Source: Polyangiaceae bacterium (GTDB taxonomy: Bacteria; Myxococcota_A; Polyangia; Polyangiales; Polyangiaceae). From it: a stretch of DNA of 34,340 bases. The stretch lies in NCBI GenBank assembly GCA_036488725.1, contig DASXHD010000111.1, positions 80,760 to 115,099 on the forward strand, given 5' to 3'. Under the pieces are notes generated by a model that saw only the letters and a program-made list of their open reading frames with translations, was not told the origin of the DNA and did not search any database. Positions within the stretch are counted from its first letter, which is position 1; each line of letters starts with the position of its first letter. Positions 11,722 through 33,753 of this stretch are shown piece after piece. The position numbers and the translations under genes were made by a program.

Positions 11722-12380
11722 CGATGGCTCGGCAACCTAAGACCGAAATGAGCGCGCTGCCATTTCTGCCGAAAAAACGAGTGACGCTCGCGACGCTCGC
11801 CGACGCAGCGCGAGCGTGCCGCGGATGCCCGCTCTACGCGCGCGCGACGCAGACCGTGTTCGGCGCGGGCCCGGCGAGCGCGCGCGTGATCCTCGTCGGC
11901 GAGCAGCCGGGCAACGACGAAGATTTGAGAGGCGCGCCGTTCGTCGGCCCGGCCGGACGCGTGCTCGACAAGGCGCTCGCCGCGGCGCACATCGATCGAC
12001 GCGAGACCTACGTCACCAACGTCGTGAAGCACTTCAACTGGGTCGCGACGACCGGCAGCCGGCGCCTGCACAAGAAACCGTCGTCGCGCGAAGTCTCGGC
12101 GTGCTTGCCGTGGCTCGAAGAAGAAATCGTTCTGATCAAACCAGACGTCGTCGTTCTTCTCGGCGCGACCGCGGCGCAAGCCATCCTCGGGCGAGATTTC
12201 CGCGTCACGAAAGACCGCGGCAAGCTCCTCGCGACGCGCTTTGGAGCACGTGCGCTCGCGACGGTGCACCCCTCGTCGATCCTTCGGCAGCGAACGCACG
12301 AAGACCGCGCGCGCGAGACGGAGCGCTTCGTCGCGGACCTCGCCGTCGTCGCCAAGCTCATTCACCGCAGAGCGGCGTGA
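11706..12380 (+). CDS. udgX: UdgX-like family-4 uracil-DNA glycosylase (covalent uracil-DNA binding type)
   Basis: GEQPGNDEDLRGAPFVGPAGRVLDKAL (family-4 motif A). VHPSSILRQ (motif B). An R-loop insertion VVKHFNWVATTGSRRLHKKPSSREVSACLPW closely parallels the UdgX KRRIH loop, with the His retained. TTG at 11706; in-frame ATGs at 11724 and 11748 are more likely starts. Confidence 0.8.
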   Translation: MRPSSPMARQPKTEMSALPFLPKKRVTLATLADAARACRGCPLYARATQTVFGAGPASARVILVGEQPGNDEDLRGAPFVGPAGRVLDKALAAAHIDRRETYVTNVVKHFNWVATTGSRRLHKKPSSREVSACLPWLEEEIVLIKPDVVVLLGATAAQAILGRDFRVTKDRGKLLATRFGARALATVHPSSILRQRTHEDRARETERFVADLAVVAKLIHRRAA

Positions 12381-12381
12381 A

Positions 12382-13392
12382 TCAAATCTCGGCGCTGTGC
12401 AGCCACTTCGGGTGACTCGCGGTGCTGTCGTATTTGTCGGCGGTCTTGAAGAGCTCGTACTTTCCGCTGAGCGCCGCGTCGCGCGTGCGCCGCAGGAGAT
12501 CGGCGATCTGATCCTCGTCGAGCGGCTTGAAGTTTTGCGCGACGTGGATCGCCTGGTTCAAGATTGGCATCGAGTCGCACCCGGTGATGACGACGTTGGT
12601 CGGCAAACTGAGTGCATACTGCAAACATTCGACGGCGGTCACGGTCTTGCTCTTCAGGAGATCGCCCGAGCCGATCGGCTTCATGCTGCAGATCCCGAGG
12701 CCCTTGCGGCGCGCGACCGGCAGCACGTTGTGCTGAAAGCTCCGGAAGTGCGCGTCCATCACGTTGAGCGGCATCATGATCGTGTCGAACGTGAAGCCGT
12801 GTTGTTCGGCGACGGCGAGCATCTCGAGGTGGATGCTCGGATCTTTGTGGCCGGTGAAGCCGATGAACCGGAGCTTGCCGGCTTTGCGCGCTTCGAGGAG
12901 ACCTTCGATCGCGCCGCCGGGCGCGAAGACCGCGGTCGGATCGCTCGAGCGAATGACCTCGTGGATCTGCACGAGATCGATGTGATCGGTGCGAAGGCGC
13001 TGGAGCGATTGCTCGAGCTGCTTTTGCGCGGAGTCTTTGTCGCGACCGTCGACCTTGGTCATCAGGAACGCGCGCTGGCGCCAGCCGCCCTCGAGCGCCT
13101 TGCCCATGCGTCGCTCGCTGTCGCCGCCGTGGTAGTCCCAGCTGTTGTCCATGAACGTCACACCGTGATCGATTGCGCTGCGCACGATGCGGATGGCCTC
13201 GTCCTCGGTGTGCGTCTCGCCGAGGTGCGAGCCGCCGATGCCGATGCGCGAGATGGTCTCGCCGGTGCGGCCGAGCACGTTGGTCGGAATGCCGCCCTTC
13301 ACGGGCGCGGACGTGAGGCTCGGCGGCGGATCGTTCTTCGCGCAAGCCGCGAGCACGACCGTTCCTGCGATGAAGCTTCGACGCGAAATCAT
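12382..13392 (-). CDS. Aldo/keto reductase family oxidoreductase, Tat-signal lipoprotein
   Basis: AKR fold signature (GIGGSHLGE..., IRIVRSAIDHGVTFMDNSWDYHGG, HIDLVQIHE). N-terminus MISRRSFIAGTVVLAACA has a twin-arginine motif plus an LAAC lipobox. The track ORF extends to 13539, but an ATG at 13392 gives a proper signal peptide. Confidence 0.75.
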   Translation of the reverse strand: MISRRSFIAGTVVLAACAKNDPPPSLTSAPVKGGIPTNVLGRTGETISRIGIGGSHLGETHTEDEAIRIVRSAIDHGVTFMDNSWDYHGGDSERRMGKALEGGWRQRAFLMTKVDGRDKDSAQKQLEQSLQRLRTDHIDLVQIHEVIRSSDPTAVFAPGGAIEGLLEARKAGKLRFIGFTGHKDPSIHLEMLAVAEQHGFTFDTIMMPLNVMDAHFRSFQHNVLPVARRKGLGICSMKPIGSGDLLKSKTVTAVECLQYALSLPTNVVITGCDSMPILNQAIHVAQNFKPLDEDQIADLLRRTRDAALSGKYELFKTADKYDSTASHPKWLHSAEI

Positions 13393-13432
13393 CCGCCGAT
13401 GCGGTGCACGCGTCGTACCATGCGGCCCAGCC

Positions 13433-14746
13433 ATGGCCGGCGCGAAACCCGACGAACGCGAGGTGTTGACCGTCGCCGGGCGCGAGGTCGTGGTGACCAA
13501 TCCGGGGAAAATATTTTTTCCCGAGGCGGGCCACACCAAGCTCGACCTCGTTCGTTATTTCATCGCGGTCGCCGACGGGGCGGTGCGCGGCGTCTTCAAT
13601 CGGCCGATGGCGCTCAAGCGATTCGTCAATGGCGCGGCGCGGCCGGCGTTCTTCCAGAAGCGCGCGCCCGAAAAGCGTCCTGATTGGATGAAGACGGTGA
13701 CGCTGTCGTTTCCGTCGGGCCGAACGGCCGACGAGATCGTCATCACCGACGCCGCGCAGCTCGCGTGGATCGCGAACCTCGGGTGCGTCGATCTCAATCC
13801 GCATCCGACGCGGTCGAACGATCTCGATCATCCCGACGAGCTGCGCATCGATCTCGATCCGGTGCCGGGCGTCGGGTGGAAACAAATCGTCGAGACCGCC
13901 GGCGTCGTGCGCGAAGTGCTCGACGACATGAAGTGCGCCGGGTGGCCGAAGACGAGCGGCTCGCGCGGCATTCACGTTTACGTGCGCATCCAGCCGAAAT
14001 GGGATTTCAACGAGGTTCGACGGTCCGCGCTCGCGATCGCGCGCGAGGTCGAGCGGCGCGCGCCGAGCATCGCGACGAGCAAGTGGTGGAAGGAAGAGCG
14101 CCACGGCGTCTTCCTCGACTACAACCAGAACGCGAAAGATCGCACCGTCGCGAGCGCCTATTCGGTGCGCCCGACGAAAGACGCGCGCGTGTCGATGCCG
14201 CTCGCGTGGGACGAGCTCACCGCGTGCGATCCGGCTGATTTCACGCTCGCGACGGTTCCGAAGATTTTCGCCGAGCGAGGCGACGCGCACGCGAAGATCG
14301 ACGAGTCGGCGTGCTCGCTCGAGTCGATCCTCGAGCTCAGCGCGCGCCAAGAGTCCGAAGGTCAAGGCGACGCGCCGTGGCCGCCGCACTACGCGAAGCA
14401 ACCTGGCGAGCCTCGCCGCGTGCAACCCTCCAAAGCGCGCAAGGACGACGCGCCGACGAAGACCGCCGTGCGCCGCGCGAAGCATCCGCTCCTCGTGATT
14501 TCGCAAGCCGCCGAAAAGGAAGACGCGCTCGCGGGGCTCGAACGCTGGAAGGAAAAACATCCCGCCGTCGCCGCGAGGCTCGCGCCCGAAGACGTGCTCG
14601 TCGACGCGATGCGCGGGCGCCACCGAACCTGGACGCGCATCCGCGTGAACTTGCGCAGCGTTCCCGAGGCCGAGCGACCCGCGCAGGAAACGCCCGACCC
14701 GGACTACGACCCGAGCGTCGAGTGGCACGGCAAGACGCACGAATAG
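13433..14746 (+). CDS. Stand-alone LigD-type primase-polymerase domain protein (Prim-PolC/PolDom-like) with ~130-aa C-terminal extension
   Basis: PolDom/archaeo-eukaryotic primase motifs GKIFFPEAGHTKLDLVRYF, VDLNPHP, SGSRGIHVYV, FLDYNQNAKDRTVASAYSVRP. The in-frame ATG at 13433 (MAGAKPDERE) avoids overlap with the divergent AKR gene. Track ORF is 13187-14746. Confidence 0.85.
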   Translation: MAGAKPDEREVLTVAGREVVVTNPGKIFFPEAGHTKLDLVRYFIAVADGAVRGVFNRPMALKRFVNGAARPAFFQKRAPEKRPDWMKTVTLSFPSGRTADEIVITDAAQLAWIANLGCVDLNPHPTRSNDLDHPDELRIDLDPVPGVGWKQIVETAGVVREVLDDMKCAGWPKTSGSRGIHVYVRIQPKWDFNEVRRSALAIAREVERRAPSIATSKWWKEERHGVFLDYNQNAKDRTVASAYSVRPTKDARVSMPLAWDELTACDPADFTLATVPKIFAERGDAHAKIDESACSLESILELSARQESEGQGDAPWPPHYAKQPGEPRRVQPSKARKDDAPTKTAVRRAKHPLLVISQAAEKEDALAGLERWKEKHPAVAARLAPEDVLVDAMRGRHRTWTRIRVNLRSVPEAERPAQETPDPDYDPSVEWHGKTHE

Positions 14747-14786
14747 GCGCAGTCGACAGCGGCGAATCGAGCCCTACCCTTTCGCG

Positions 14787-15260
14787 ATGACCGCTCCGAA
14801 ACCCGTCGCGATCCTCGCCGCCGAAGCTCCGCCCCGCACGAAACCGTCGAATTACCCCGAGCCGTTCGCCTCGCGCATGAAGGGGCGGGAAAAGCGGCCT
14901 TTGGGCGATCTCTTCGGTTTGAAAAATTTCGGCGTGAACCTCACGCGGCTCGCGCCGAACGCTTCGTCCGCGCTTCGACACGCACACTCGAAACAAGACG
15001 AATTCGTCTACGTGCTCGAAGGACGCCCGACGCTCCACACCGGCGCCGGCAAGACGCGTCTCGCTCCCGGCATGTGCGCCGGGTTTTCAGCGGGCGGCGA
15101 CGCGCATCGTTTGATCAACGAGACGACCGACGACGTCGTCTACCTCGAGATCGGCGACCGCACGCCGGGCGACGAAGGCTCGTATCCGGACGACGACATT
15201 CGCGCCGAGCTCGTGGGCGGCGCGTGGCGTTTCGTGCACAAAGACGGCACGCCTTATTGA
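14787..15260 (+). CDS. Cupin-domain protein
   Basis: 157-aa ORF with a cupin-like beta-barrel signature (HAHSKQDEFVYVLEGRPTLHTGAG...GMCAGFSAGGDAHRLIN). It lies 40 bp downstream of the Prim-Pol gene on the same strand. Confidence 0.6.
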   Translation: MTAPKPVAILAAEAPPRTKPSNYPEPFASRMKGREKRPLGDLFGLKNFGVNLTRLAPNASSALRHAHSKQDEFVYVLEGRPTLHTGAGKTRLAPGMCAGFSAGGDAHRLINETTDDVVYLEIGDRTPGDEGSYPDDDIRAELVGGAWRFVHKDGTPY

Positions 15261-15991
15261 GCGCTGAACGGCTCGAGGCCGATTTCGAGCGGCCGCTCGG
15301 GCGTCGCGGCCATCTCGAGGTGCGCCTCGCGCGTCGTGCGGTAGTCGCTCGGCGCGTCCTCGCCGAGCCGTCGCGCGAGGCCGCGCGCGAAGACGAGCTC
15401 GTGCGGCGCGATCCACTCGACGCGCACGCGCGCAGGCTCGCACACCGAGACGCCGCGCTCGGAGAGGAACTGCACGACGTCCTCGCTGCCGTCGATCGTC
15501 GGCCACTCGCGCTGGTGATCGCGCGGCATGTGCCAGCGCGCGCCGTCGAGCTGCACGACGACCTTCGCGCCGGCGCCGTCTTCGAGCGTGATCGCATCGG
15601 CGGAGCGACTCTCGAAGAGGATCTTGTCGGGATGGTCCGACGCCGTGACGACCACGCGATAAAAAATGCACGGCGGCGCCCCGAGCGGTGCGTGCCGCGC
15701 GTGCTCGGTGAAACCGACGAGCCCCGCGGCCGTGACGAGGCCCGGCTCGAGGCTCGCGAGCGGCGTCGGCATCGCGCCGAGCTTCGCGCGCGGCGTGCGA
15801 CGCGGGGCACGCCGAATCACTTCGCGCGCGAGGATGCCGACCGAGACCATTCCGACCGTCGCGGCGACGAGCGCTTTCACTTGATGCAAGTGCAGCAGAA
15901 TCCAACCGACGACGATGAGACCGGTTCCGAGGATCAGAAAGAGCCCGCTGAACGCGCAACCGAAGCCGTCGTCGTCGTCGTCGTCCAGCAC
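15254..15991 (-). CDS. Hypothetical membrane protein with poly-Asp N-terminus and two TM helices
   Basis: GTG start directly abutting the ligase stop. MLDDDDDDGFG, then hydrophobic helices (FSGLFLILGTGLIVVGWILLHL; ALVAATVGMVSVGILA). No recognisable catalytic motifs. Confidence 0.45.
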   Translation of the reverse strand: MLDDDDDDGFGCAFSGLFLILGTGLIVVGWILLHLHQVKALVAATVGMVSVGILAREVIRRAPRRTPRAKLGAMPTPLASLEPGLVTAAGLVGFTEHARHAPLGAPPCIFYRVVVTASDHPDKILFESRSADAITLEDGAGAKVVVQLDGARWHMPRDHQREWPTIDGSEDVVQFLSERGVSVCEPARVRVEWIAPHELVFARGLARRLGEDAPSDYRTTREAHLEMAATPERPLEIGLEPFSAQ

Positions 15992-17068
15992 TCAGCCTCC
16001 GAAAATCTTGGCGACCTCGTACGGCGGCGTCACGTCGAGCTGGGCGTAGGTGCAATCTTTCGGTTCTTTGTCGGGTCGCCATCGCTTGAAGTGCGTCGCG
16101 TGGCGGAAGCGGCGGCCCTGCATGTGATCGAACGAGACCTCGCACACGCGCTCGGGGCGAAGCGGCTCCCACGACAAATCTTTGTTCGCGTTCCAACGGC
16201 TCTTCATGCCGGGTTTTCGCTGCGCGGCTTGCGCGTCGTCGTGCTCTTTCCAGTCGGCCCACGGGTGATTCGCGAGCGCGTTCTCGCGGAGCGGCGCGAG
16301 CTCGGCGACGAGCTCCTTGCGACGCTCGGTCTTGAACGACGAGCAGATGCCGACGTGCTGCAGGTCCCCGCTGTCGTCGTAGAGGCCGAGCAAGAACGAG
16401 CCGATCGCTTCTTCCTTCGAGCCCTTGTACCAGCGGAACCCGGCGAGCACGCAGTCGCACGTGCGCTCGTGCTTGATCTTGAGCATCGTGCGCTTGCCGG
16501 GCGAGTAGACGAGATTTTCGTCTTTCGCGACGACGCCGTCGAGGCCCGCGCCTTCGAAGCGATTGAACCAATCCGTCGCGAGCGCGCGGTCGCGCGTCGC
16601 GGGCGTCAGGTAAATCGGCGGCGTCGCTTTGCCGAGCGCGGCCTCGAGGCTCGCGCGGCGTTCTTTTTGCGGGCGCGCGCGAAGATCGTCTTCGCCGAGC
16701 GCGAGCATGTCGAACGCGACGTACGACGCGGGCCACTGCGACGCGAGCATCTTGATGCGCGACTCGGCCGGGTGAATGCGCTGAAGCAGCGCCTCGAACT
16801 GGAGCGCGCCGTCGCGCGCGATCACGATTTCGCCGTCGAGCACGCAGCGCTCGGGGATCTGCGCGCGGAGCGGTGCGGCGAGCTCGGGAAAGTAACGCTG
16901 GAGCGGCTTGAGATCGCGGCTCTGAATCTGAACGTCGTCGCCGTCGCGAAAAACGATCGCGCGAAACCCGTCCCACTTGGGCTCGAAGATGAAATTCTCG
17001 CTCTCGGGAATGCCGCTCGTGAGCTTGGCGAGCATCGGCTCGATCGGCGGTTGGAAAGGGAGCTTCAT
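15992..17068 (-). CDS. ligC: Stand-alone ATP-dependent DNA ligase (LigC-like, ~358 aa)
   Basis: Motif I adenylation lysine in EPKWDGFRAIVF. Downstream nucleotidyltransferase and OB-domain motifs (DGEIVIA, VAFDML, EGLVAKD, KIKHERTCDCVLAGF). Start ATG at 17066-17068 (MKLPFQPPIEPM) overlaps the stop of the upstream gene (ATGA). The track ORF extends to 17317 with a GTG start. Confidence 0.85.
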   Translation of the reverse strand: MKLPFQPPIEPMLAKLTSGIPESENFIFEPKWDGFRAIVFRDGDDVQIQSRDLKPLQRYFPELAAPLRAQIPERCVLDGEIVIARDGALQFEALLQRIHPAESRIKMLASQWPASYVAFDMLALGEDDLRARPQKERRASLEAALGKATPPIYLTPATRDRALATDWFNRFEGAGLDGVVAKDENLVYSPGKRTMLKIKHERTCDCVLAGFRWYKGSKEEAIGSFLLGLYDDSGDLQHVGICSSFKTERRKELVAELAPLRENALANHPWADWKEHDDAQAAQRKPGMKSRWNANKDLSWEPLRPERVCEVSFDHMQGRRFRHATHFKRWRPDKEPKDCTYAQLDVTPPYEVAKIFGG

Positions 17069-17817
17069 AGTTTGGCCGTCCACTTGTAGCCGCCGCCCGG
17101 CTTGCTCGTGAGCTCGACGTTGCCGTGCATCGGTTTCTTGTCGCGCGTCGTGAACGTGCACGTCGCCTTGCCGCCGCTGAACACGACCGGACCCGCGCCG
17201 CAATCGACGTCGACGCCGCTCGGGTGCTTGGCCTTCGCCGTGTCGCCGACCGATTTCGTGAGGTCGGCGGACAGGTCTTCGCCCTTTCCCACCGGCGCGT
17301 CGAGCGTGGTCGACCACTCACCCCACGTGCCGTCGGTGTCGACTTTGGTGCGCTCGACCTGCGCGGTCACGCTCGCGCCGTTGTCGCCCGCGAGCGTGCA
17401 GCTCGTCTTCGTGTCGGCGTCGGCGATCTCGGGACAAGTGCACTTCGTGAACGCGAACTTGGCGTAATTTTTCTCGAGCGACTTTTCGACTTCTTGGCGA
17501 TTGGTGAGCACCGGCGCCGGCGGCACGATCGGCGTCGGCTCGTAACACATCTCTTCGCGCGAGCTCGAGCCGGGGAAGCGCGTGACCGTGCCCGAGCAGC
17601 TCGACGCGCCTTTCATCGCGGTGAAGGCGAACGTGAACGGACCTTTGAACGTGACCTTCGGGCTCGCGTATCCGTCGGCCTCGAGATCGGAGCGCACCGT
17701 CGCCCACGATTTGAGCACCCAAAGGCCCGGAACGAGAACGAGCAGCGCGACGACCCCGAGAGCGATGAGCCCGGGCCCCAAGCTCGAGCGTGGCTTCGGC
17801 GTCGGCGCGTAGTTCAC
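17065..17817 (-). CDS. Signal-anchored secreted protein with tandem Cys-pair (DUF4333-like) repeats
   Basis: N-terminal TM/signal segment LIALGVVALLVLVPGLWVL. Two repeats with paired cysteines (CTCPEIADADTKTSCTLAGDNGASVTAQV and DCGAGPVVFSGGKATCTFTT) resemble actinobacterial DUF4333 lipoprotein domains. Its stop overlaps the ligase start. Confidence 0.5.
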   Translation of the reverse strand: MNYAPTPKPRSSLGPGLIALGVVALLVLVPGLWVLKSWATVRSDLEADGYASPKVTFKGPFTFAFTAMKGASSCSGTVTRFPGSSSREEMCYEPTPIVPPAPVLTNRQEVEKSLEKNYAKFAFTKCTCPEIADADTKTSCTLAGDNGASVTAQVERTKVDTDGTWGEWSTTLDAPVGKGEDLSADLTKSVGDTAKAKHPSGVDVDCGAGPVVFSGGKATCTFTTRDKKPMHGNVELTSKPGGGYKWTAKL

Positions 17818-17843
17818 GTGCGGATGCTACACGAACGTCGACG

Positions 17844-18449
17844 ATGAAGTGCAGCACGCTTCAGCTCGGTTTGTTCGCGCGCGAGCCGCTCGCGATCGAC
17901 GAGACGTTCGCGCGCGCCGAACGCGTGGAGCTCGGACCGAACGCGTGGGTCGAGATCGTGCGCGGGTGGGTCCGCGGCGATCGCGAGCTCTTCGATCACC
18001 TCGTCGCGACCGCGCCATGGCGCGACGAAGAGCGCGTCATGTACGACCACGTCGTCGCCGTCCCTCGGCGCATCGCCGTGCTCGATCGCTTGCATTCTAC
18101 AATCATTCGCGTGCGTGAATCGCTGGACGCGCGCTACGCGACGAGCTTCGAGCGGATCAGCGTGGCGCACTACCGCGACGGCCGCGACAGCGTCGCGTGG
18201 CACGGCGACTATGTCGCGCGCAAGCTCGACACCGCGCTCGTCGCGACCGTCTCGCTCGGCTCGCCGCGGCGCTTTTTGATTCGGCCCAAAGGCGGCGGCC
18301 CGTCGCGCGCGTGGACGCTCTCGGGCGGCGATCTCGTCGTGATGGGCGGGACGTCGCAACGCACGCACGAGCATTCGGTTCCCAAAGTCGCGAGCGCGGG
18401 GCCGCGCGTCGCGCTCATGTTCCGTCCGGTCTGGCACGAGCCGACGTAA
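17844..18449 (+). CDS. alkB: AlkB-family Fe(II)/2-oxoglutarate-dependent DNA/RNA demethylase
   Basis: HxD...H triad and flanking AlkB motifs: VAWHGDYV, VSLGSPRRFLIRPKGG, GDLVVMGGTSQRTHEHSV, RVALMFRP. Track ORF is 17790-18449; the ATG at 17844 (MKCSTLQ) is the likely start. Confidence 0.8.
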   Translation: MKCSTLQLGLFAREPLAIDETFARAERVELGPNAWVEIVRGWVRGDRELFDHLVATAPWRDEERVMYDHVVAVPRRIAVLDRLHSTIIRVRESLDARYATSFERISVAHYRDGRDSVAWHGDYVARKLDTALVATVSLGSPRRFLIRPKGGGPSRAWTLSGGDLVVMGGTSQRTHEHSVPKVASAGPRVALMFRPVWHEPT

Positions 18450-18458
18450 GATGATCGC

Positions 18459-19862
18459 ATGCGCCGCTCGGCCCTCGTCGTCCTCGCGATGGTCGCGGTC
18501 ACCGCGCGCTGCGACACGAAGCCCGGCGCGCGCACGTGCGTCATCGTGCCGCCGCAAACTGATTTTCGGCTGACGACGAGCGGAACGAATTTCGTCGACA
18601 GCCTCGGCCGCATCGTCATCTTGCGCGGCGTCGACGCGGGCACGCGGAGCAAGTTCGCGCCGTTCGTTCCGTTCGATTTCGGCGACGACTACGAAGGTGC
18701 ACTTGCAAAATACATGGATCATGCCGCGTCGTGGGGCGTGGACGTCTTCCGCGTGCCGTGGGTTTGGGCGGCGCTCGAGCCGACGCAAGGTCAAGACGAC
18801 GCGACGTGGCTCGGTCGCTTCGACGAATTCATCGACGCCGCGTGGGCGCGCGGAATCTGGACAGTGCTCGACTTTCATCAGGACGTGTACTCCGAAAATT
18901 TTTGCGGCGACGGCTTCCCCGGTTGGACGCTGACGAATCCGCCCGCGCCGCATCACGACTGCGCCGTTTGGTCGACGGCCTACGCGACCGACCCGGTGAA
19001 GGCGGCGTTCGATGCCTTCTGGTCGGACGCGGGCGGCGTACAAACGGCTTATTTTTCGGCCTGGGACGTGATGATTGCAAGATACAAGGATCGTCCGGGC
19101 GTCCTCGGCTTCGAGCCGATCAACGAGTGCTCTGGCGGCTCGCAAGACGACGACACGTTCTCGGCGACGACGCTCTCGGATTTTTACGCCAAGTTCGTCG
19201 CGCACGCGCGCTCGCTCGCGCCCGAGTCGCTCGTCTTCCTCGAGCCGAGCGGAACGAGCGGCGTGACGCTCGCGACGACGCTCGTGCGCCCGCCCGGCGA
19301 CGGCATCGTCTTCGCGCCGCACTTCTATCCGCTCGATGCGCGCCCCGAGAGCGTGCAAGACAACTTGCAAAAGCTCCAAGCGATCGGCGCCGCGTGGAAC
19401 GTCCCCACGTGGGTCGGCGAGTTCGGCGCGACGAACCTCCTCGACTCGACGCCCGCGCGCATGCAAGCGACGTGGGCCGCGATGGACGCGCTCGGCGTGA
19501 GCGGCACCGAATGGGAGTACAGCACCGCGACCGAGCTCTGGGACGCCGAGTCGTGGTCGCTCACCGACGCGAGCGGAAACGATCTTCCGGTCGCCGCGGC
19601 CATCTTGCGTCCCTACGCGCGCGCGATCGCCGGCACGAGCCCGTCGATGGGCTTCGACACGACGACGAGCACGTTCTCCCTCGCCTACGCGCCGACCGGC
19701 GGCATCACACAAGTCTCGCTGCCCGCTCGCGCGGCGCCGAACGGCTGGGACATCGCACTCGAAGGCGCCTGCTGCGACGCAACGACCGTCCCCGGCCAAA
19801 TGCTCATCCAACCCGATCCAACCGCAACGAACGTATCTCTCTCCATCACGCCAAAGAATTAG
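18459..19862 (+). CDS. Secreted glycoside hydrolase family 5 (cellulase / endoglycoceramidase-like)
   Basis: Signal peptide MRRSALVVLAMVAVTARC. GH5 catalytic acid/base region GFEPINEC. Typical (beta/alpha)8 spacing, with a second Glu region around VGEFG. Confidence 0.7.
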   Translation: MRRSALVVLAMVAVTARCDTKPGARTCVIVPPQTDFRLTTSGTNFVDSLGRIVILRGVDAGTRSKFAPFVPFDFGDDYEGALAKYMDHAASWGVDVFRVPWVWAALEPTQGQDDATWLGRFDEFIDAAWARGIWTVLDFHQDVYSENFCGDGFPGWTLTNPPAPHHDCAVWSTAYATDPVKAAFDAFWSDAGGVQTAYFSAWDVMIARYKDRPGVLGFEPINECSGGSQDDDTFSATTLSDFYAKFVAHARSLAPESLVFLEPSGTSGVTLATTLVRPPGDGIVFAPHFYPLDARPESVQDNLQKLQAIGAAWNVPTWVGEFGATNLLDSTPARMQATWAAMDALGVSGTEWEYSTATELWDAESWSLTDASGNDLPVAAAILRPYARAIAGTSPSMGFDTTTSTFSLAYAPTGGITQVSLPARAAPNGWDIALEGACCDATTVPGQMLIQPDPTATNVSLSITPKN

Positions 19863-21595
19863 GAAGCGCGCGCCGCGCGATGCTCACGGACGCGCTCGAG
19901 CGGCTGCGCGGTCAAGACGTGCTCTTTGCCGAGCCAACCGCGGCGCGCGATGCCGACGCCGAATTTCAAGAACGTGAGCTCGCGCGTCGAGTGCGCGTCC
20001 GAGTCGATGACCACGCGCACGCCCATCTCGCGCGCCATGCGCAGGCCGTTCTCCGGCACGTCGAGGCGAAGCGGCGAGGAGTTGAGCTCGATCGCGACGC
20101 CGGTTTTCGCGAGCGCGCGGAGCACAGCCTCGAGATCCAGATCGCTCCCGTCGCGCTGGCCGAGCATGCGCCCGAACGGGTGACCGAGCGCGTCGATGCG
20201 GCCCGACTCGATCGCGCGGACGACGCGCTTGGTCATCTCTTCGCGCGGCATGCCGAGCTTGGAGTGCACGCTCCCGACGACCCAGTCGAGCTTCGGAAGA
20301 TCGTCGGCGAGGTCGAGCGATCCGTCGCCGAGAATGTCGGTCTCGATGCCCGCGAGCACGCGAATCGTGTCGCCGACCTTTTCGTCGACCGCGCGAATGT
20401 TCTTCACGTGCTCGCGCAGGCGCTCCGCCGAGAGACCGTTTGCGATCGTGAGCGACACCGAGTGATCGGTGATGGCGATGTACTTGCGACCGGCCTCGCG
20501 CGCCGCGAGCGCCATCTCTTCGATGCTCGCGCGCCCGTCGCTCTCGGTCGTGTGCATGTGGAGATCGCCGATCAGGTCGGCGAGCTCGACGAGCACGGGC
20601 AGCGCGTTCGCCTTGGCCGCTTCGATTTCGCCCCGATTTTCCCTGATTTCAGGCGGCATCCACCGAAGACCGATCGCCTCGTAGACGGCTTCTTCGGTCT
20701 GACCAGCGATTGATTTTTCGTCCGGATCGAAGACGCCGTACTCGCTCACTTTGAGTTTTTTCTTCACCGCGAGCGTGCGCATCGCGACGTTGTGATCTTT
20801 CGATCCGGTGAAGTATTGCATCGCTGCGCCGAACGATGCGGGCGGCACGACGCGCAAGTCGGATTGGATTCCGCTCCGCAGGACGACGCTCGTCTTGGTC
20901 TCGCCGCGCGCGAGGACTTCGGCGACTTGAGGCATCGACGCGAACGACTCCATGATGGCCGGCGCGGCCGAGGCGTCGGCGGCGACGAGCACGTCGAGAT
21001 CGCCGACCGTCTCGCGCCGCCGCCGCAAGCTCCCGGCGAACTCGCACTGCACGACGCCCGGGACGGCGCGCATGCGCGCGACGATGCCTTCGGCGATCCC
21101 GAGCGCTTCGGCCATCGGCCAACGCTTGGGCGCCGACGCGCGCGCGCGCCACGCGGCGATCGACGTGAGCAGCTTCTCTTCGCGCTTCTGTCCGAAGCGC
21201 GGCAGGTCCCTGAGCTTTCCTTCTTTCGCGGCCGCCTCGAGCGCGTCGACGGTCGTGATGCCGCGCTCTTTCCAAACTTGCTGCGCCGTCTTCACGCCCA
21301 TGCCCGGAACGTTCATGAGCTCGGCCACGCCGGGCGGGAGCTTCGCGCGAGCTTTCTCGAGATCGTCGAGCTTGCCCGTCTCGACGAGCTCGGTGATTCG
21401 CCGCACGGCGCCGTCGCCGATCCCGGCAGTTTTTCCGAGCGTGCCCGCTTTCACTTTCGGCGCGATCGCCTCGCCCATTCCTTCGATCGCGCGCGCCGCG
21501 GCGCGAAACGCGCGCACTTTGAACGGCACCTCGCCGAGCAGCTCGAGCACGTCGGCCAGATCGAGGAACGCAGCCGCGATGGCGTCGTTGTCCAC
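19859..21595 (-). CDS. polX: DNA polymerase X family protein with C-terminal PHP phosphoesterase domain
   Basis: Pol beta-like N-terminus with HhH motifs (LMNVPGMGVKTAQQV). Nucleotidyltransferase GSLRRRRETVGDLDVLV. PHP domain LHMHTTESDG...AITDHS...DSDAH. Convergent 4-bp overlap with the GH5 gene. Confidence 0.85.
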   Translation of the reverse strand: MDNDAIAAAFLDLADVLELLGEVPFKVRAFRAAARAIEGMGEAIAPKVKAGTLGKTAGIGDGAVRRITELVETGKLDDLEKARAKLPPGVAELMNVPGMGVKTAQQVWKERGITTVDALEAAAKEGKLRDLPRFGQKREEKLLTSIAAWRARASAPKRWPMAEALGIAEGIVARMRAVPGVVQCEFAGSLRRRRETVGDLDVLVAADASAAPAIMESFASMPQVAEVLARGETKTSVVLRSGIQSDLRVVPPASFGAAMQYFTGSKDHNVAMRTLAVKKKLKVSEYGVFDPDEKSIAGQTEEAVYEAIGLRWMPPEIRENRGEIEAAKANALPVLVELADLIGDLHMHTTESDGRASIEEMALAAREAGRKYIAITDHSVSLTIANGLSAERLREHVKNIRAVDEKVGDTIRVLAGIETDILGDGSLDLADDLPKLDWVVGSVHSKLGMPREEMTKRVVRAIESGRIDALGHPFGRMLGQRDGSDLDLEAVLRALAKTGVAIELNSSPLRLDVPENGLRMAREMGVRVVIDSDAHSTRELTFLKFGVGIARRGWLGKEHVLTAQPLERVREHRAARAS

Positions 21596-26701: not shown

Positions 26702-26778
26702 GCGATCAGACTACGTCAGTTTGTACGGTCGCGTCAGCCCGGCGGGGACCGGTCGTCCGTGATATGGTCGCCGCGTCT

Positions 26779-26855
26779 GCGCCACTAGCTCAGCTGGATA
26801 GAGCGACGGCCTCCGGAGCCGTAGGTCAGAGGTTCGAATCCTCTGTGGCGCGCCA
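26779..26855 (+). tRNA. tRNA-Arg (anticodon CCG)
   Basis: Manual cloverleaf fold. Acceptor gcgccac/gtggcgc. D arm gctc-agctggata-gagc. Anticodon stem acggc/gccgt with loop ctCCGga. T arm agagg-ttcgaat-cctct. Discriminator g plus encoded CCA. 77 nt. Confidence 0.9.
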
Positions 26856-28185: not shown

Positions 28186-28207
28186 TGGTTCTCCTCGAAA
28201 TGGAGCA

Positions 28208-28414
28208 CTACTTGCGCTTGAGCGCCACGACCGTCGCGCGCGGCGAGGACTTCTCGCCGCGCGCGAACGCCTCGATGGCCCCACGCTCGAAGCGCAGCAA
28301 GCCGCCCACGCGAAGCGCAGGCAAGTCGCCGACTTCGGCCCGGTGGTACACCCAAGACCGCGAGACCCTGAGAAATGTGGCGACGTCCGCTGCTGTCCAG
28401 AGCGATTCGCTCAC
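28208..28414 (-). CDS. xis: Excisionase / AlpA-like HTH DNA-binding protein
   Basis: 68-aa ORF MSESLWTAADVATFLRVSRSWVYHRAEVGDLPALRVGG. This is the classic excisionase/MerR-like winged helix. It lies immediately upstream of int on the same strand. Confidence 0.7.
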   Translation of the reverse strand: MSESLWTAADVATFLRVSRSWVYHRAEVGDLPALRVGGLLRFERGAIEAFARGEKSSPRATVVALKRK

Positions 28415-29323: not shown

Positions 29324-30619
29324 CTACGTGATCATTTCAAGTTTCTTTTGCCCGTGGTCGAGCATAGCGATTTCGAGGATCGTCCTCGCGTGGCTCTCAC
29401 TGATGCGTACCGGTCCACCAGCTCGGCGTTTGGCCCGAACACCAAGGCGCAACTCAGCTTCCTTCAACAGCGCGGGCACATCGTCGTCGCGCCGCAGTAA
29501 CCCATCAGCCACTGCTTCTTCGACAAAGTCGGCGAGACATGTCCACGCCTCCCGCGTCGACGTGCCCTTGAGCTGCTCTCGGACCCGCACCCTCCAGTCG
29601 GCGTCCAGCAAGTAGCCGCTCCCGTCACGTTCGGGCGCGCAACCGGCGAGCTCGATGGCATCGTTCAGCGCGTTGCGCACCGTCGTTTCCGCGAAGTCGA
29701 GTTGTCGCGCGACCTCGGCGATCCTCCAGCCTTCGCGCACCGGCCGTTGGCGCGCCACCAAACCGTTGCACGGTTCTGACTGACCTTCTTCATTGTAGTC
29801 GGGCTCGATGCCATGGTCTTCGGACACCCGCACCGTCACCGATGTGAGGCCCCGCTTACGGAGTTTCGTCTTGCGATCGTTGGCGAAGACCTTCGCGACG
29901 TATTGGGCGGGAATGCCGGTCTCGCTTGGAACGTACGCGCGCAGAATGTCTTGTTTCCGATCCAGTGTTGTCGCGACAAGGTTTTGTTGCTCGTCCTCGA
30001 TGCTTTCGCGCGTCTTCTTTGCAACCGCTCGGAGCGCACATTCGAACGTCTTCCACTCGCGCGCGTGCTCGGCGGTGTCGTTCGCGCTCGCCAGCAATAC
30101 GTCGGGGCGAAGCGCACGGAACATTGCCCATGCTTTGTTCCGAAACATGAAGGAGCGTTCACACAAGCCCTCCACGTGCTCGACCACCCTAACGGCATCA
30201 ATGAAACGGACCGCGGGCCACATTGCGGCCACGAGCTCGGCCTCGCAGTCAAAGACCTGCCGAAGCTCGTCTTCAGCCGGAGCGGGGTCAATAACGCCGC
30301 AGCGACTCGTGCGAAAGAAGTCCACCATTCTATCGATGAGGCGCTTGCCTTTGTGGAATGCCGTCATTCCGGTCGTCACGTCGGGAGTAAAGCCTGGCAT
30401 GTCCAGCTGCAGAAACACGATGTACGGTTCGGCGTAGGTTCCCTTCGCGAAGTCCAGAATCTCGGACCTGATCTCATCATCGAGCGGACCGAAAACCGCG
30501 TGCTCGTCCTCGGCCTGCTGGCACGCGATGTATTCCGCCAACGCGTCCGGAGTAGCGGTCCTCTGTAGATTTACGCCGGCTTGACGCGTCCGCTCTTCTA
30601 GGTCTTTCGAACTAATCAC
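29324..30619 (-). CDS. Hypothetical island protein (~430 aa) with C-terminal sigma-70 region-4-like HTH
   Basis: Long non-Arg-rich ORF. HTH near the C-terminus (GWRIAEVARQLDFAETTVRNALNDAIEL). No catalytic motif recognised. The 5' end is uncertain. The GTG at 30617-30619 is the first in-frame start that does not overlap the divergent ParB-like gene. Track ORF runs to 31168. Confidence 0.45.
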   Translation of the reverse strand: MISSKDLEERTRQAGVNLQRTATPDALAEYIACQQAEDEHAVFGPLDDEIRSEILDFAKGTYAEPYIVFLQLDMPGFTPDVTTGMTAFHKGKRLIDRMVDFFRTSRCGVIDPAPAEDELRQVFDCEAELVAAMWPAVRFIDAVRVVEHVEGLCERSFMFRNKAWAMFRALRPDVLLASANDTAEHAREWKTFECALRAVAKKTRESIEDEQQNLVATTLDRKQDILRAYVPSETGIPAQYVAKVFANDRKTKLRKRGLTSVTVRVSEDHGIEPDYNEEGQSEPCNGLVARQRPVREGWRIAEVARQLDFAETTVRNALNDAIELAGCAPERDGSGYLLDADWRVRVREQLKGTSTREAWTCLADFVEEAVADGLLRRDDDVPALLKEAELRLGVRAKRRAGGPVRISESHARTILEIAMLDHGQKKLEMIT

Positions 30620-30751
30620 CGGCAACAGGTTTCGGCCGGGGCCCGTGGGTGTCAAGGCGAACTTTTTTTCCCGGCGCGTCGCTTGTGCGGACCGGCGTGA
30701 CTGTTGTCCATGCGCCGACGCCTTTAAGTTTCGGCGGCGCACGGAGACCCA
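30620..30751. promoter_or_regulatory. Divergent intergenic region on the island, presumed bidirectional promoter/operator
   Basis: ~130-bp non-coding gap between the head-to-head unknown gene (minus) and ParB-like gene (plus). Contains a TTGACA hexamer and a T7 run (gaactttttttcc). No -10 element could be assigned confidently. Confidence 0.3.
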
Positions 30752-32770
30752 ATGCCCACCCCGAAAGACGAGACGAACGCGAAGATGACGAGCACGGTGC
30801 CCGCATTCGACGGAAGCGCCACAGCGAACGATCAGCCCACCGCCCCACCGTCGCAACTCGGCAGTCGCCTGCGACGCGGGAAGCGAAGCGCGACGCTGTT
30901 GGCTCCGCTCGACTCGGCCGCAGAAGACAGCGGCGCCGAGAAGAACCTGGAAGTCGCCATCGGAGCGCCCGCGAGTCCCGTGTTCGGCGCCGCGCTCGCG
31001 CTGCGCGGGACGAAGACGCAGACGCTCGAGACGAAGAAGACGACAACGCCCGAGGTCACCACTGCACCCGATGACATCCCGGTCGGGCGCATCGACGAAG
31101 CCGAGGAGCTCGTCGTCACGCCGCCGCTGCAGCCGGCGGTGCTCACCGAACCCACGACGTGCCCGCACCCGCTACTGCAGCGTCTCGGCGACCACAGGTG
31201 CGCCCTCTGCGGCTGCATCGTGACGGCGCCGCCCACGTCGTCGGTCGCTCCGGCACCGAACGGCATCATTCCGGAAAGCGAGTGGAGCGACGAGCAGCGC
31301 GCTCAGGACAAGAAGATCGCCGAGATGAAGGCGCGCATCGAGCACGAGATGGGCCTTGAGCCGACTCCGCCCTTGCCACACCTCCCGGCCGTCGCCGTAA
31401 CCGAAGTCAGCTTGGGCGCACCGGCAACGCGTGGGGACCCCCCCGCGGCGATCGCCGAGCCGCCGCCCGCGAAGGCCGATGACCGGTCGCTCGCCGACAT
31501 CATCTTCTCCTGCGAACATCCGGACCATCTTCGCAGTGCGACGGGATGCGCGGCGTGCGGCGCGGGCCTGAGACTCATCGAGTCCATCGACGCCGGCAAG
31601 AAGCTCAACGCGCAGCTGGCCGCGCAGGCCGCCGCAACCGCGCAGCAGGCGCCGGACAAAACACTGCCCGACGTGAGCGCAGAAGCGGGTACAGCTTCCC
31701 CGGACGTCGGCGGGTCGGTGCCGGGGACGGCGGAGAGCTCGCCGTCGGTCGAGCGCGGCGGCGACAACGACGTCGCCGGCGATCACCCAGGGCAGCTCGC
31801 GCCCGATCGCGGCGAGAACGGCGAGCCGCTGTACCACGCCGCGTGCCTCGCGTTCCCCGAGCCGACCGAGCCCGAGATGGCCGAGCTCATCGAGAGCGTG
31901 CGCGTCCACGGGGTCCAGCACGAGGGCGTGCTCTTCAAGGGCAAGGTGCTCGACGGTCGCAGCCGCGAGATTGCGTCGCGTCGAGCAGGCGTGCGGATGC
32001 GCTGGCGCGAACTGCCCGCGGGGATCGACCCCATCGACTACGTCACGGCTGCGAACGTGACCCGTCGAAATCTCACGCCTGGTCAGCTCGCGATGGCGGC
32101 AGCAGCGCTCGTGCCTCTCATCACGGAAGCGGCGCGCGAGCGTCAGCGCGCCGGTCTCGGCTCGGATGGCAGCGGAGGCCGCGGGAAGAAAACCCTGGCG
32201 CCAGATGGCGCCAAGGTTCGTGCGCCGAAGGCCGCGGGCATCGCCGCGGCGAAAATCGGCGCCAAGGCGCGCAACGTCGAGCGCGCCTTGGTCGTCGAGG
32301 AGCGCGGAGCGCCGGAGACCGTGGCTGCCGCGCGGGCGGGCACGCTGCCGCTAGCAACCGCCGAGATGCTCGCGCAGCTCCCGGCGCAGGAGCAGACCGA
32401 GGCAATCGCCGCGGGGCCCGACGCCGTTCGCGCAGCGGCGGCGAAGTTCCGCGGGAATCTGAAAAACCGCACCAATCGCAAGACGAAAGCGGACCGCTCC
32501 CCAGTTACCTACGAAGACGCGGCGGCGAAGAACGCCAAGACCGCGGAGACTCGTGCGAACGACTCGAACGATTCAGTCGTCGCGTTTACCCCGGGGGACA
32601 AACTCGCCGGAATGCAGGACGTGCTGTGGGCCCTGCACGCGATCGAGGCCTTCTTGCGTGCCTCGGGCGCATTCGAGCCATCGTCGCAGCTCGAGCGCGT
32701 GCGCAGCGACCTGCACGACCTCGACGAACTGCTCGCGAAGCTGATCACTCCGGCGGCGGTGACACGATGA
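30752..32770 (+). CDS. ParB/Srx-like nuclease-domain + HTH protein with ~380-aa low-complexity N-terminal extension carrying two Cys/His knuckles
   Basis: ATG with an SD (GGAGacccaATG). ParB N-domain MAELIESVRVHGVQHEGVLFKGKVLDGRSREIASRRAGV (GxRR-like arginine motif). ParB-type HTH IAAAKIGAKARNVERALVVEE...LPLATAEMLAQL. N-terminus is acidic and Ala/Pro-rich, with repeats TCPHPLLQRLGDHRCALCGC and SCEHPDHLRSATGCAACGAG. Confidence 0.7.
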   Translation: MPTPKDETNAKMTSTVPAFDGSATANDQPTAPPSQLGSRLRRGKRSATLLAPLDSAAEDSGAEKNLEVAIGAPASPVFGAALALRGTKTQTLETKKTTTPEVTTAPDDIPVGRIDEAEELVVTPPLQPAVLTEPTTCPHPLLQRLGDHRCALCGCIVTAPPTSSVAPAPNGIIPESEWSDEQRAQDKKIAEMKARIEHEMGLEPTPPLPHLPAVAVTEVSLGAPATRGDPPAAIAEPPPAKADDRSLADIIFSCEHPDHLRSATGCAACGAGLRLIESIDAGKKLNAQLAAQAAATAQQAPDKTLPDVSAEAGTASPDVGGSVPGTAESSPSVERGGDNDVAGDHPGQLAPDRGENGEPLYHAACLAFPEPTEPEMAELIESVRVHGVQHEGVLFKGKVLDGRSREIASRRAGVRMRWRELPAGIDPIDYVTAANVTRRNLTPGQLAMAAAALVPLITEAARERQRAGLGSDGSGGRGKKTLAPDGAKVRAPKAAGIAAAKIGAKARNVERALVVEERGAPETVAAARAGTLPLATAEMLAQLPAQEQTEAIAAGPDAVRAAAAKFRGNLKNRTNRKTKADRSPVTYEDAAAKNAKTAETRANDSNDSVVAFTPGDKLAGMQDVLWALHAIEAFLRASGAFEPSSQLERVRSDLHDLDELLAKLITPAAVTR

Positions 32771-33753
32771 GCGCCTCGGTTCTTGGCGTCGGGCGTCCGA
32801 ATCCCATGGAGCGCGTCGGGCCCTGGATCAAACACTTTCCAGGCGGCAAAGGGCACAACAACTGCCCGCGCTTCTACTACGTGCGCGATGGATTCGGATG
32901 CACATACAACTGCCATTATTGCTATTTGCGTCGCTTCGAGAATCTTCATCCGGATGGCGCGGAGTTCGATCCGAAGTTTGAGCGGCTCTACTCCGAGGTA
33001 AAGGCGTGGATGAAGCGGCCGGGCCGCAACGCATTGCTCCTCGGTGAAGTTACCGACGGGTGGGGCTGGACGCATATCGAAAAAATTCTCGAACGCAACC
33101 TGCAGCTCATCGTGATGTTTCGCGCGCAGCAGTCGCACACGCTAATCACGTTGACGAAGGACAGCCACGTGATGCAGCGTCTCGCCGGTATCACGCCGAC
33201 GGACCGCGTGGTCCTTTCGTGGAGTTTGAACCCGCCGGCGATCGCGGACTTGTACGAGATGGGCGCGAAGCAAGCAGAGGCGCGCATCGCAGACGCGGCA
33301 CGCGCCCGCGAGGCAGGCTGGCGCGTTCGCGTTCGGATCGATCCGATGATTCCGATTGCCGAGTGGCAACGACATTACGCGGAACTCGCCAATGTCGTGC
33401 GCGACCGAGTTCGACCCGAGCTCGTGACGTGTGGGTCGTGGCGTCCGCGCCCCCAGGACCCAATGATGAAGTCCGCGCCGCCGGAGATGACGGCGCATTT
33501 GGAGAAGGGGCCTGACGGACGCCTGCGCCTGAAGAACCGGATCGAGATGTACGAGACGGTCTGGGCGATTCTTGGCTCCGACATCACGCGCAGCCTCTGC
33601 AAGGAGGAACTCGACGTCGAAGCTTGGCTCTACACCGAGCACGGTGAGGTGATGCAGGCGTGCAACTGCCTCGGCGAGCCCGTCGTCCCAGTCAGCCGCC
33701 TGCACGTCAGTGCGGCGCTCCAGGCGCGCGCGCGTGTGGAGGTGCGCCGATGA
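32767..33753 (+). CDS. Radical SAM enzyme of the SplB / DNA-repair-photolyase-like (COG1533) type
   Basis: CX3CX2C cluster in the context GFGCTYNCHYCYL, typical of the spore-photoproduct-lyase family (C..C.YCY). Start ATG overlaps the ParB-like stop (ATGA). It is in frame with an upstream Arg-rich artefact (track ORF 31546-33753). Confidence 0.7.
   Translation: MSASVLGVGRPNPMERVGPWIKHFPGGKGHNNCPRFYYVRDGFGCTYNCHYCYLRRFENLHPDGAEFDPKFERLYSEVKAWMKRPGRNALLLGEVTDGWGWTHIEKILERNLQLIVMFRAQQSHTLITLTKDSHVMQRLAGITPTDRVVLSWSLNPPAIADLYEMGAKQAEARIADAARAREAGWRVRVRIDPMIPIAEWQRHYAELANVVRDRVRPELVTCGSWRPRPQDPMMKSAPPEMTAHLEKGPDGRLRLKNRIEMYETVWAILGSDITRSLCKEELDVEAWLYTEHGEVMQACNCLGEPVVPVSRLHVSAALQARARVEVRR

Follow-up and report, generated by a model that had tools for sequence, protein, structure and literature searches.

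An orphan ParB-like protein with a long N-terminal tail and two candidate zinc knuckles on a predicted phage-like element of a Polyangiaceae bacterium

What might a ParB-like protein do with several hundred residues placed ahead of its core? The question is raised by an open reading frame (ORF) at 30752..32770 on the plus strand of a 34,340-nucleotide (nt) stretch of DNA, hereafter the window, from a Polyangiaceae bacterium (assembly GCA_036488725.1, contig DASXHD010000111.1, forward strand, positions 80,760 to 115,099). This ORF, our target, encodes 672 amino acids (aa), shows a coding signal over its full length by the phase of G+C content at third codon positions (GC3) and by codon log-odds, and specifies a product identical to HEY1959555.1, a hypothetical protein from a metagenome-assembled Polyangiaceae bacterium. 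An initial annotation had described it as a ParB-like protein preceded by a disordered extension of ~380 aa in which two similar Cys/His knuckles occur. We propose that it is an orphan ParB-like protein of the phage type, with a tail that is specific to its lineage, probably binds zinc and acts as an adaptor, a reading that as a whole we consider about equally likely to stand or to fall; in the underlying segment anatomy of the protein we have considerably more confidence.

The ParB-like nature of the C-terminal part was borne out by a family profile and by fold comparison, with Pfam and NCBIfam contributing no match. The target found no family in Pfam even at E <= 10 (including PF02195), in NCBIfam at E <= 1 or in PADLOC; its sole library match was to a PHROG family annotated as function unknown, and phmmer with the single target sequence matched nothing in the PDB. 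A 63-sequence family profile, in turn, matched Thermus Spo0J (1vz0) at E 7e-9 over both the N-terminal domain and the helix-turn-helix (HTH), and also matched Myxococcus xanthus ParB and Noc. Searching with the AlphaFold2 model of the target, Foldseek returned Spo0J, ParB, Noc, KorB and pNOB8 ParB at probability 1.0 (E down to 6e-6), together with phage ParB-like proteins. PF02195 gave weak matches in 9 of the 63 relatives (best E 1.7e-4), and some relatives are named "ParB-like" or "ParB N-terminal domain-containing" in their source records. On the strength of the profile and fold evidence, with PF02195 silent on the target, we place the protein in the ParB/Srx superfamily.

Within this core (all target features lie on the plus strand), the NTPase-fold ParB N-terminal domain spans residues 356-470 (31817..32161), as delimited by Foldseek and the family profile, and is modeled with a predicted local distance difference test score (pLDDT) of ~97. 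A Gly/Lys-rich linker separates it from the HTH region, residues 493-580 (32228..32491; pLDDT 86-98, with helices over 493-554), which corresponds to the profile stretch that falls on the Spo0J HTH. The helical C-terminal region, residues 587-664 (32510..32743; helices at pLDDT 53-88), has no family match and possibly serves in dimerization. Residues D401, G402, R405, R438 and R439 are invariant in the 63 relatives. They include Box II, GxxR, which in the target is G402-R-S-R405 (nt 31955-31966), the profile string DGRNR pairing with GERR of Spo0J. Box III is represented by A434-N435...R438-R439, in which the Asn and Arg are kept and the catalytic Glu is absent (family s-a-N-l-h-R-R-H-L aligned with V-E-N-L-Q-R-E-D-L of Spo0J). 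The G-x-x-R string is the P-motif of the ParB-CTPase fold, whose nucleoside triphosphate (NTP) specificity is not predictable from sequence (PMC12704722). NTP-dependent clamping is predicted for the target.

How unusual is the tail among proteins with such a core? An exhaustive HMMER scan of 1.84 billion representatives returned 11,014 relatives at E <= 1e-3, and the best 150 of them all match target residues ~350-600 only. In 209 family proteins the core starts at a median residue of 3, so that N-terminal extensions are the exception in this family: at least 50 residues precede the core in 21 proteins, at least 100 in 14 and at least 200 in 6, the 351 residues of the target being the longest. 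The initial claim that canonical ParB/KorB proteins lack such an extension agrees with what we found among the relatives (14/209 with at least 100 residues). A Cys4- or CHCC-type motif lies outside the core in 14 of 211 family proteins, in most cases as a C-terminal C-x2-C...C-x2-C ribbon, and one member (P0155) carries a ClpX-type zinc finger (PF06689, E 7e-16); small Cys modules thus appear to be a recurrent but minor accessory of the family. Fusions to MT-A70, N6_N4 methylase or UPF0020 domains are frequent among the relatives.

Since the ParB-like core begins at about residue 356-361 (nt ~31817-31832), the extension is ~355 aa long rather than ~380. Its acidic, Ala/Pro/Thr-rich character is as first described: residues 1-383 contain 15.4% A, 12.0% P, 8.1% T and 8.1% E, with a net charge of -25. 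Disorder is predicted for about two thirds of the extension and is not uniform. AlphaFold2 gave pLDDT <50 for residues 1-136, 157-172, 207-241 and 302-343, interrupted by a confidently predicted helix at 180-199 and an ordered module at 242-300 predicted with fair confidence. The acidic Ala/Pro/Thr-rich residues 1-136 (30752..31159; pLDDT 30-39) are predicted to be disordered, and homolog searches with them gave no match. The helix at residues 180-199 (DEQRAQDKKIAEMKARIEHE; 31289..31348) is charged and amphipathic, and was modeled with pLDDT ~95 in the full-length protein and 88-91 in a fragment. A Pro/Ala-rich linker (207-241) precedes the ordered module, and an acidic Gly/Ser/Pro-rich linker (301-355; 31652..31816; pLDDT 36-46 over most of its length) connects that module to the core.

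The two Cys/His elements lie within this tail, and both are present as originally noted: residues 136-155 read TCPHPLLQRLGDHRCALCGC and residues 253-272 read SCEHPDHLRSATGCAACGAG, at a spacing of 117 residues (~120 had been given). Both fit C-x-H-P-x(8-9)-C-A-x-C-G and both contain the Cys plus His, then C-x2-C, ligand set ascribed to them, and together they account for 7 of the 8 Cys residues of the protein (C137, C150, C153 and C155 in the first; C254, C266 and C269 in the second). Knuckle 1 (residues 137-155; 31160..31216) is C137-P-H139-P-x9-C150-A-L-C153-G-C155, and knuckle 2 is C254-E-H256-P followed by a hairpin and then G-C266-A-A-C269-G-A. When residues 1-355 were shuffled 200,000 times with composition preserved, the pattern C.H.{6,14}C..C occurred at least once in 0.03% of the shuffles and twice in none (0/200,000), which argues that the pair is real and not a product of chance. 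Similarity between the two knuckles is restricted to ~20 residues near the ligands (local alignment z = 3.1 against shuffles). No DNA-level repeat was found between them, ruling out a recent DNA duplication. The description of the knuckles as duplicated thus holds for the motif, which does occur twice, and goes too far for its origin: with ~20 shared residues and no DNA repeat, an old duplication is plausible and convergence is the alternative.

The stronger case for a folded unit is made by knuckle 2, which belongs to a module of ~60 residues (242-300; 31475..31651; pLDDT 74-89). In the AlphaFold2 model this module consists of a helix (247-252), a short hairpin (261-266) and a long helix (271-298); C254 and H256 precede the hairpin, and C266 and C269 lie at its end, just ahead of the long helix. 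From this layout we infer a knuckle or treble-clef-like zinc site. The same module was found in the best match of the exhaustive HMMER scan, a 371-aa metagenomic protein (P0004; E 4e-32), which carries CAHPPKHQTLDGCSSCGA at residue 48, N-terminal to its ParB-like core. Its layout is a single C-x-H-P-x7-G-C-x2-C-G-A knuckle with a helix, a linker and then the same core, and BLAST aligned it with the target in one segment (target 236-453, P0004 30-212; 39% identity, E 5e-37). The module at target residues 242-300 is homologous to P0004 residues 30-89. In the 60 residues around knuckle 2, 25 are identical (42%; z = 14), and these comprise all four ligands, as part of the strings D, RS, II, C, HP, GC and CGA, and then L, S and KLNA in the helix. 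The cores of the two proteins are ~40% identical. P0004 differs from the target in having only one knuckle, 47 residues from its start, in a linker ~35 aa shorter (the extra length of target residues 301-355 sits in the BLAST alignment gap) and in lacking the radical S-adenosylmethionine (SAM) neighbor described below.

Homologs, then, do not uniformly lack the motif: P0004 has a counterpart of knuckle 2. No homolog was found of knuckle 1, which was also missed by a hidden Markov model of the knuckle-2 module. Because the same module stands at the N-terminus of P0004, we regard it as the ancestral, selected part of the tail. The most economical reading of residues 1-199, which include knuckle 1 and the helix at 180-199, is that they were a later, lineage-specific addition.

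Searches for further carriers were largely empty. Phage and plasmid records yielded no match to residues 125-300 by tblastn, nor did phages to the target region by blastn; a k-mer homolog search with the full target returned only the target itself, low-complexity words having swamped the candidates, and one with the C-terminal 312 aa returned two weak matches only. A degenerate DNA pattern for the knuckle had 8 matches in viral contigs, of which 7 were out-of-frame noise and one fell within an ORF. This 101-aa ORF (6191..6496, plus strand, of IMGVR_UViG_3300036851_000701, here L016, a viral contig of 71% GC) has a ribbon-helix-helix (RHH)-like N-terminus, and its last residues, CRHPVNMRIGDGCGLCGA, repeat the C-x-H-P-x7-G-C-x2-C-G-A string of knuckle 2; just downstream of it lies a terminase-like ORF of 574 aa. 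Whether a third knuckle carrier or a chance match, it is taken here as suggestive only.

What could such a tail do? The four ligands come in two close pairs, C254/H256 and C266/C269 in the target and C48/H50 and C60/C63 in P0004, all invariant, and knuckle 1 follows the same pattern. Each knuckle probably binds one zinc ion. In the mechanism that we propose, the acidic disordered tail would act as a flexible tether, in which the two Cys-His-Cys-Cys knuckles, each holding a zinc ion, and two helices would be embedded. Knuckle 2 and the long helix after it would form an ancestral docking module, and the tail would serve as an adaptor that keeps a partner protein, or a second contact to nucleic acid, on the ParB-like dimer bound to DNA. 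The suggestion is made by analogy, because ParB (for ParA) and Noc (for the membrane) carry their partner contact in an N-terminal peptide, and we advance a protein-adaptor role only tentatively.

Several results weigh against this picture. No partner protein for the tail was identified. Pfam gave nothing relevant at E <= 10 for the whole tail or for each knuckle segment of 60-77 aa, profile searches of the knuckles against the PDB gave nothing below E 0.89, and neither knuckle matched a known zinc-finger, zinc-knuckle or zinc-ribbon family in Pfam or in PDB sequences. Knuckle 1 was modeled at low confidence (pLDDT 44-57) and had no homolog, a scan of viral contigs with its segment being empty. 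A separate model of residues 125-300 was weaker (mean pLDDT 59) and found no fold match when compared with the PDB by Foldseek. Conservation of knuckle 2 is documented by one homolog, P0004, plus the possible third instance on L016: when metagenome, genome and viral contigs were scanned with the knuckle, the only contigs recovered were those of P0004 itself, and a scan of viral contigs with P0004 as query yielded nothing further.

The knuckles could instead be nucleic-acid-binding zinc ribbons that add DNA or RNA contacts to the protein rather than hold a protein partner, an alternative that we consider unlikely, if the least so of those examined here. Their ligand order (C-H-C-C) and the C-x2-C-G of the second half recall the CHC2 ribbon of DnaG/T7-type primases (PF01807), which has the same Cys-His-Cys-Cys order; every carrier seen so far is a DNA-binding protein, and the same string ends the small RHH-type ORF of the high-GC viral contig. 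Neither PF01807 nor any zinc-ribbon model matches the knuckles, however, and their C-x-H-x9-10-C is much shorter than the C-x2-H-x17-C spacing of primase zinc ribbons. In addition, the strong negative charge of the surrounding tail disfavors binding to nucleic acid. The C4 domain of ClpX is a zinc-binding module for dimerization and adaptor contacts; its model (PF06689) does not match the knuckles by sequence either, and its spacing differs from theirs, the ClpX-type finger of the family being that of P0155.

The adaptor reading also presupposes that the whole tail is made. The window has a G+C content of ~68%, and from ~30750 on, G+C at codon position 3 of the target frame is 0.78-0.98 with position 2 lowest, as is typical of genes on the plus strand when a genome is rich in G+C. 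A codon log-odds score trained on eight confident chromosomal genes inside the window gave, per codon of the target frame, +0.33 for residues 1-136, +0.26 for 137-199, +0.20 for 200-355 and +0.37 for the core; across the target region the remaining five frames were negative or near zero. Two minus-strand ORFs over the target (30832..31269 and 31172..31921) had codon scores at or below zero and were rejected as real genes, being shadow ORFs on this evidence. A Shine-Dalgarno-like GGAG, read from the sequence, lies at 30743..30746, 5 nt 5' of the ATG at 30752, which is the earliest possible start since an in-frame stop occurs at 30725-30727. A start downstream of both knuckles (after ~31900) is thus disfavored by the codon statistics, the GC3 phase and the Shine-Dalgarno, all of which point to 30752, and by these criteria the N-terminal extension of ~355 residues is translated. 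The same intergenic region, between divergent genes, contains a 14-nt inverted repeat, TCCATGCGCCGACG / CGGCGGCGCACGGA (30707..30745; 86% complementary, 11-nt spacer), which overlaps the Shine-Dalgarno and could be an operator or a hairpin that sequesters the ribosome-binding site.

Translation might still begin within the tail, at Met192 or Met200, giving a P0004-like protein with one knuckle ~55 residues from its N-terminus and leaving knuckle 1 untranslated. One MAFFT alignment pairs Met1 of P0004 with Met200 of the target, which makes a shorter product conceivable and tells against the tail as we describe it; no search found a homolog for residues 1-199, and knuckle 1 is the poorly modeled one. 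Against this, nt 30752-31348 are as coding-like as the core by codon log-odds and GC3, with other frames at or below zero, and neither Met192 nor Met200 is preceded by a ribosome-binding site comparable to the GGAG of 30752. A downstream start would also require an in-frame C-x-H-P...C-A-x-C-G to stand in untranslated DNA by extreme coincidence. We consider it improbable.

The genomic setting offers a further candidate role. Ordinary chromosome makes up the left 26 kb of the window, with a giant GH94 glucan synthase-like gene, an acyl-CoA dehydrogenase gene and rbfA. Further along lie a tRNA-Arg(CCG) gene (26779-26855, plus strand; ARAGORN) and a tyrosine integrase ORF (26785-28284, minus strand; PF00589, E 1.7e-22), the left end of an integrated element. 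On the minus strand, the integrase is followed by a DNA-methylase-like gene, a small HTH gene and a gene for a 405-aa HTH-containing protein (29324..30541; weak sigma-70 region 4 / HTH signal, no PHROG or PADLOC match). Divergent from these run the target, a radical SAM gene of the spore-photoproduct-lyase (SPL) family (32767..33753, plus strand; PF20903, E 6.6e-9) and two small ORFs, after which the contig ends. Judged by this gene content, a phage-like element is integrated at tRNA-Arg, and the target region is its integrase-proximal end. No parA gene, nor any neighbor with a ParA-type ATPase domain, accompanies the target.

The ATG of the radical SAM gene, which also has weak matches to TIGR04070 and TIGR04470 ("radical SAM mobile pair protein B"), overlaps the target stop (ATGA). 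This arrangement could indicate that the Cys/His sets bind an iron-sulfur cluster, or sense redox or metal state, in functional coupling with the downstream enzyme: sets of three Cys and one His are able to ligate such clusters, and knuckle 1 has an additional Cys155 and His148. Yet P0004 retains the knuckle without a radical SAM neighbor, and three other family loci have none either (0/3). The absence of such a gene at these four loci rules out a general link with the family, makes the pairing specific to the element of the target and is a further point against the reading that we prefer. The predicted knuckle-hairpin-helix with C-x2-C-G just before the helix is, by inferred comparison, typical of structural zinc sites. 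We regard the cluster or sensor role as very unlikely. Least credible of all is that the tail is fast-evolving low-complexity sequence whose Cys motifs have no role: although it is mostly predicted to be disordered and without homologs, and the family as a whole manages without it, knuckle 2 and its helix are 42% identical, with invariant ligands, in a homolog whose core is only ~40% identical, and two occurrences of the motif are essentially never expected from shuffling.

The preferred reading of the tail as an adaptor can be extended, as a long shot. The 60-residue "II-x2-C-x-H-P-x7-G-C-x2-C-G-A + helix" unit might be an undescribed zinc-binding adaptor domain, mobile among DNA-binding proteins of high-GC temperate phages (two ParB-like and possibly one RHH protein encoded near a terminase gene), which recruits a specific partner to a nucleotide-gated clamp. 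A possible partner in this element is the SPL-like radical SAM enzyme that is translationally coupled to the target, and an adaptor of this kind would, if true, point to ParB-guided radical chemistry on DNA.

Relatives of the target occupy comparable surroundings. At the loci of P0004 and three other core relatives, serine or tyrosine integrases, a capsid gene, RusA, helicases and methylases adjoin the gene. The P0004 gene lies on a phage-like contig (L003) beside a large serine integrase, and a 75-aa Cys-rich ORF (5752..5979, plus strand; CSCG...CETCH) is translationally coupled to it directly upstream; the P0004 locus, too, thus encodes a pair of small Cys modules, a free one in this ORF and a fused one in the knuckle. 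The target tail shows no homology to the two ORFs upstream of P0004, and no conserved synteny was seen downstream of the two genes. A basic L-G-(S/A)-R-L-(R/K)-(R/K) string occurs at target residues 36-44 (30857..30883) and at P0004 residues 22-30. It loosely recalls the ParA-binding LG(R/K)GL of ParB, although BLAST finds no significant match between the two (E 7.5) and MAFFT places the P0004 string elsewhere.

Two features of the window outside the target gene were also noted. The integrase ORF, with its stop at 26785, overlaps ~70 nt of tRNA-Arg(CCG) on the opposite strand, and the public gene calls for the contig place no gene across most of it (window ~26702-28207). The chromosomal part holds a DNA-repair and mutagenesis cluster (8806..21595) with a DnaE2-like Pol III alpha, a LigD primase-polymerase, an ATP-dependent ligase, an AlkB-like 2-oxoglutarate-Fe(II) oxygenase and a PolX with a PHP domain.

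ParB-fold proteins are now regarded as versatile nucleotide-gated DNA clamps that have been re-used repeatedly on mobile elements through domain fusions. The target adds an architecture invisible to Pfam-based surveys, in which a small, conserved Cys/His module is carried on a long disordered tail. Should this module prove to be a zinc domain that recruits partners, it would illustrate how a phage ParB of the orphan type connects to its effector. With two or three sequences, all from uncultured organisms, the biological weight is modest, and we offer the case as a lead rather than a result. Prophages are already known to encode orphan ParB-fold proteins that carry lineage-specific fusions; what is new here is a fused part that has no Pfam model and for which one clear relative was found.

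Compared with chromosomal ParB/Spo0J (Thermus thermophilus Spo0J, 1VZ0; Myxococcus xanthus ParB, 7BNK/7BNR), the target shares the NTPase fold followed by an HTH and the Box II G-x-x-R. It differs in having no TIGR00180 match, no ParA-binding motif (L/F/I)G(K/R)G(L/F/I), the nearest string being L36-G-S-R-L40, no parA neighbor and no Box III catalytic Glu (E-N in ParB, A434-N435 here), as well as in its all-helical C-terminus and its 355-aa tail with Cys/His knuckles. KorB of RK2 (8QA8/8QA9) and Noc (7NFU/7NG0) have the ParB fold of the target (Foldseek probability 1.0) and act outside segregation. Small partner proteins lock KorB, a clamp and repressor, and the N-terminal helix of Noc is a membrane tether. 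The target is 16-18% identical to these two, its tail greatly exceeds theirs in length and has Cys/His motifs absent from both, and no KorA- or TrbA-like partner was identified for it. In ParB itself, the ParA-activating peptide lies N-terminal to the NTPase fold (PMC12704722).

A further parallel is provided by the orphan ParB-CTPase proteins of Kaljevic et al. (PNAS 2025, PMC12704722), who document lineage-specific fusions to ParB-CTPase folds on mobile elements. Like them, the target lies outside a parAB operon and on a prophage-like element, and the MT-A70, N6_N4 methylase and UPF0020 fusions of its relatives involve the same partners. The target architecture is missing from that survey because the survey was Pfam-based and the knuckle module has no Pfam model; the word "zinc" appears there in a reference title only. 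By sequence profile and predicted fold, "ParB-like" is the right name for the target in the sense of these orphan ParB-CTPase-fold proteins.

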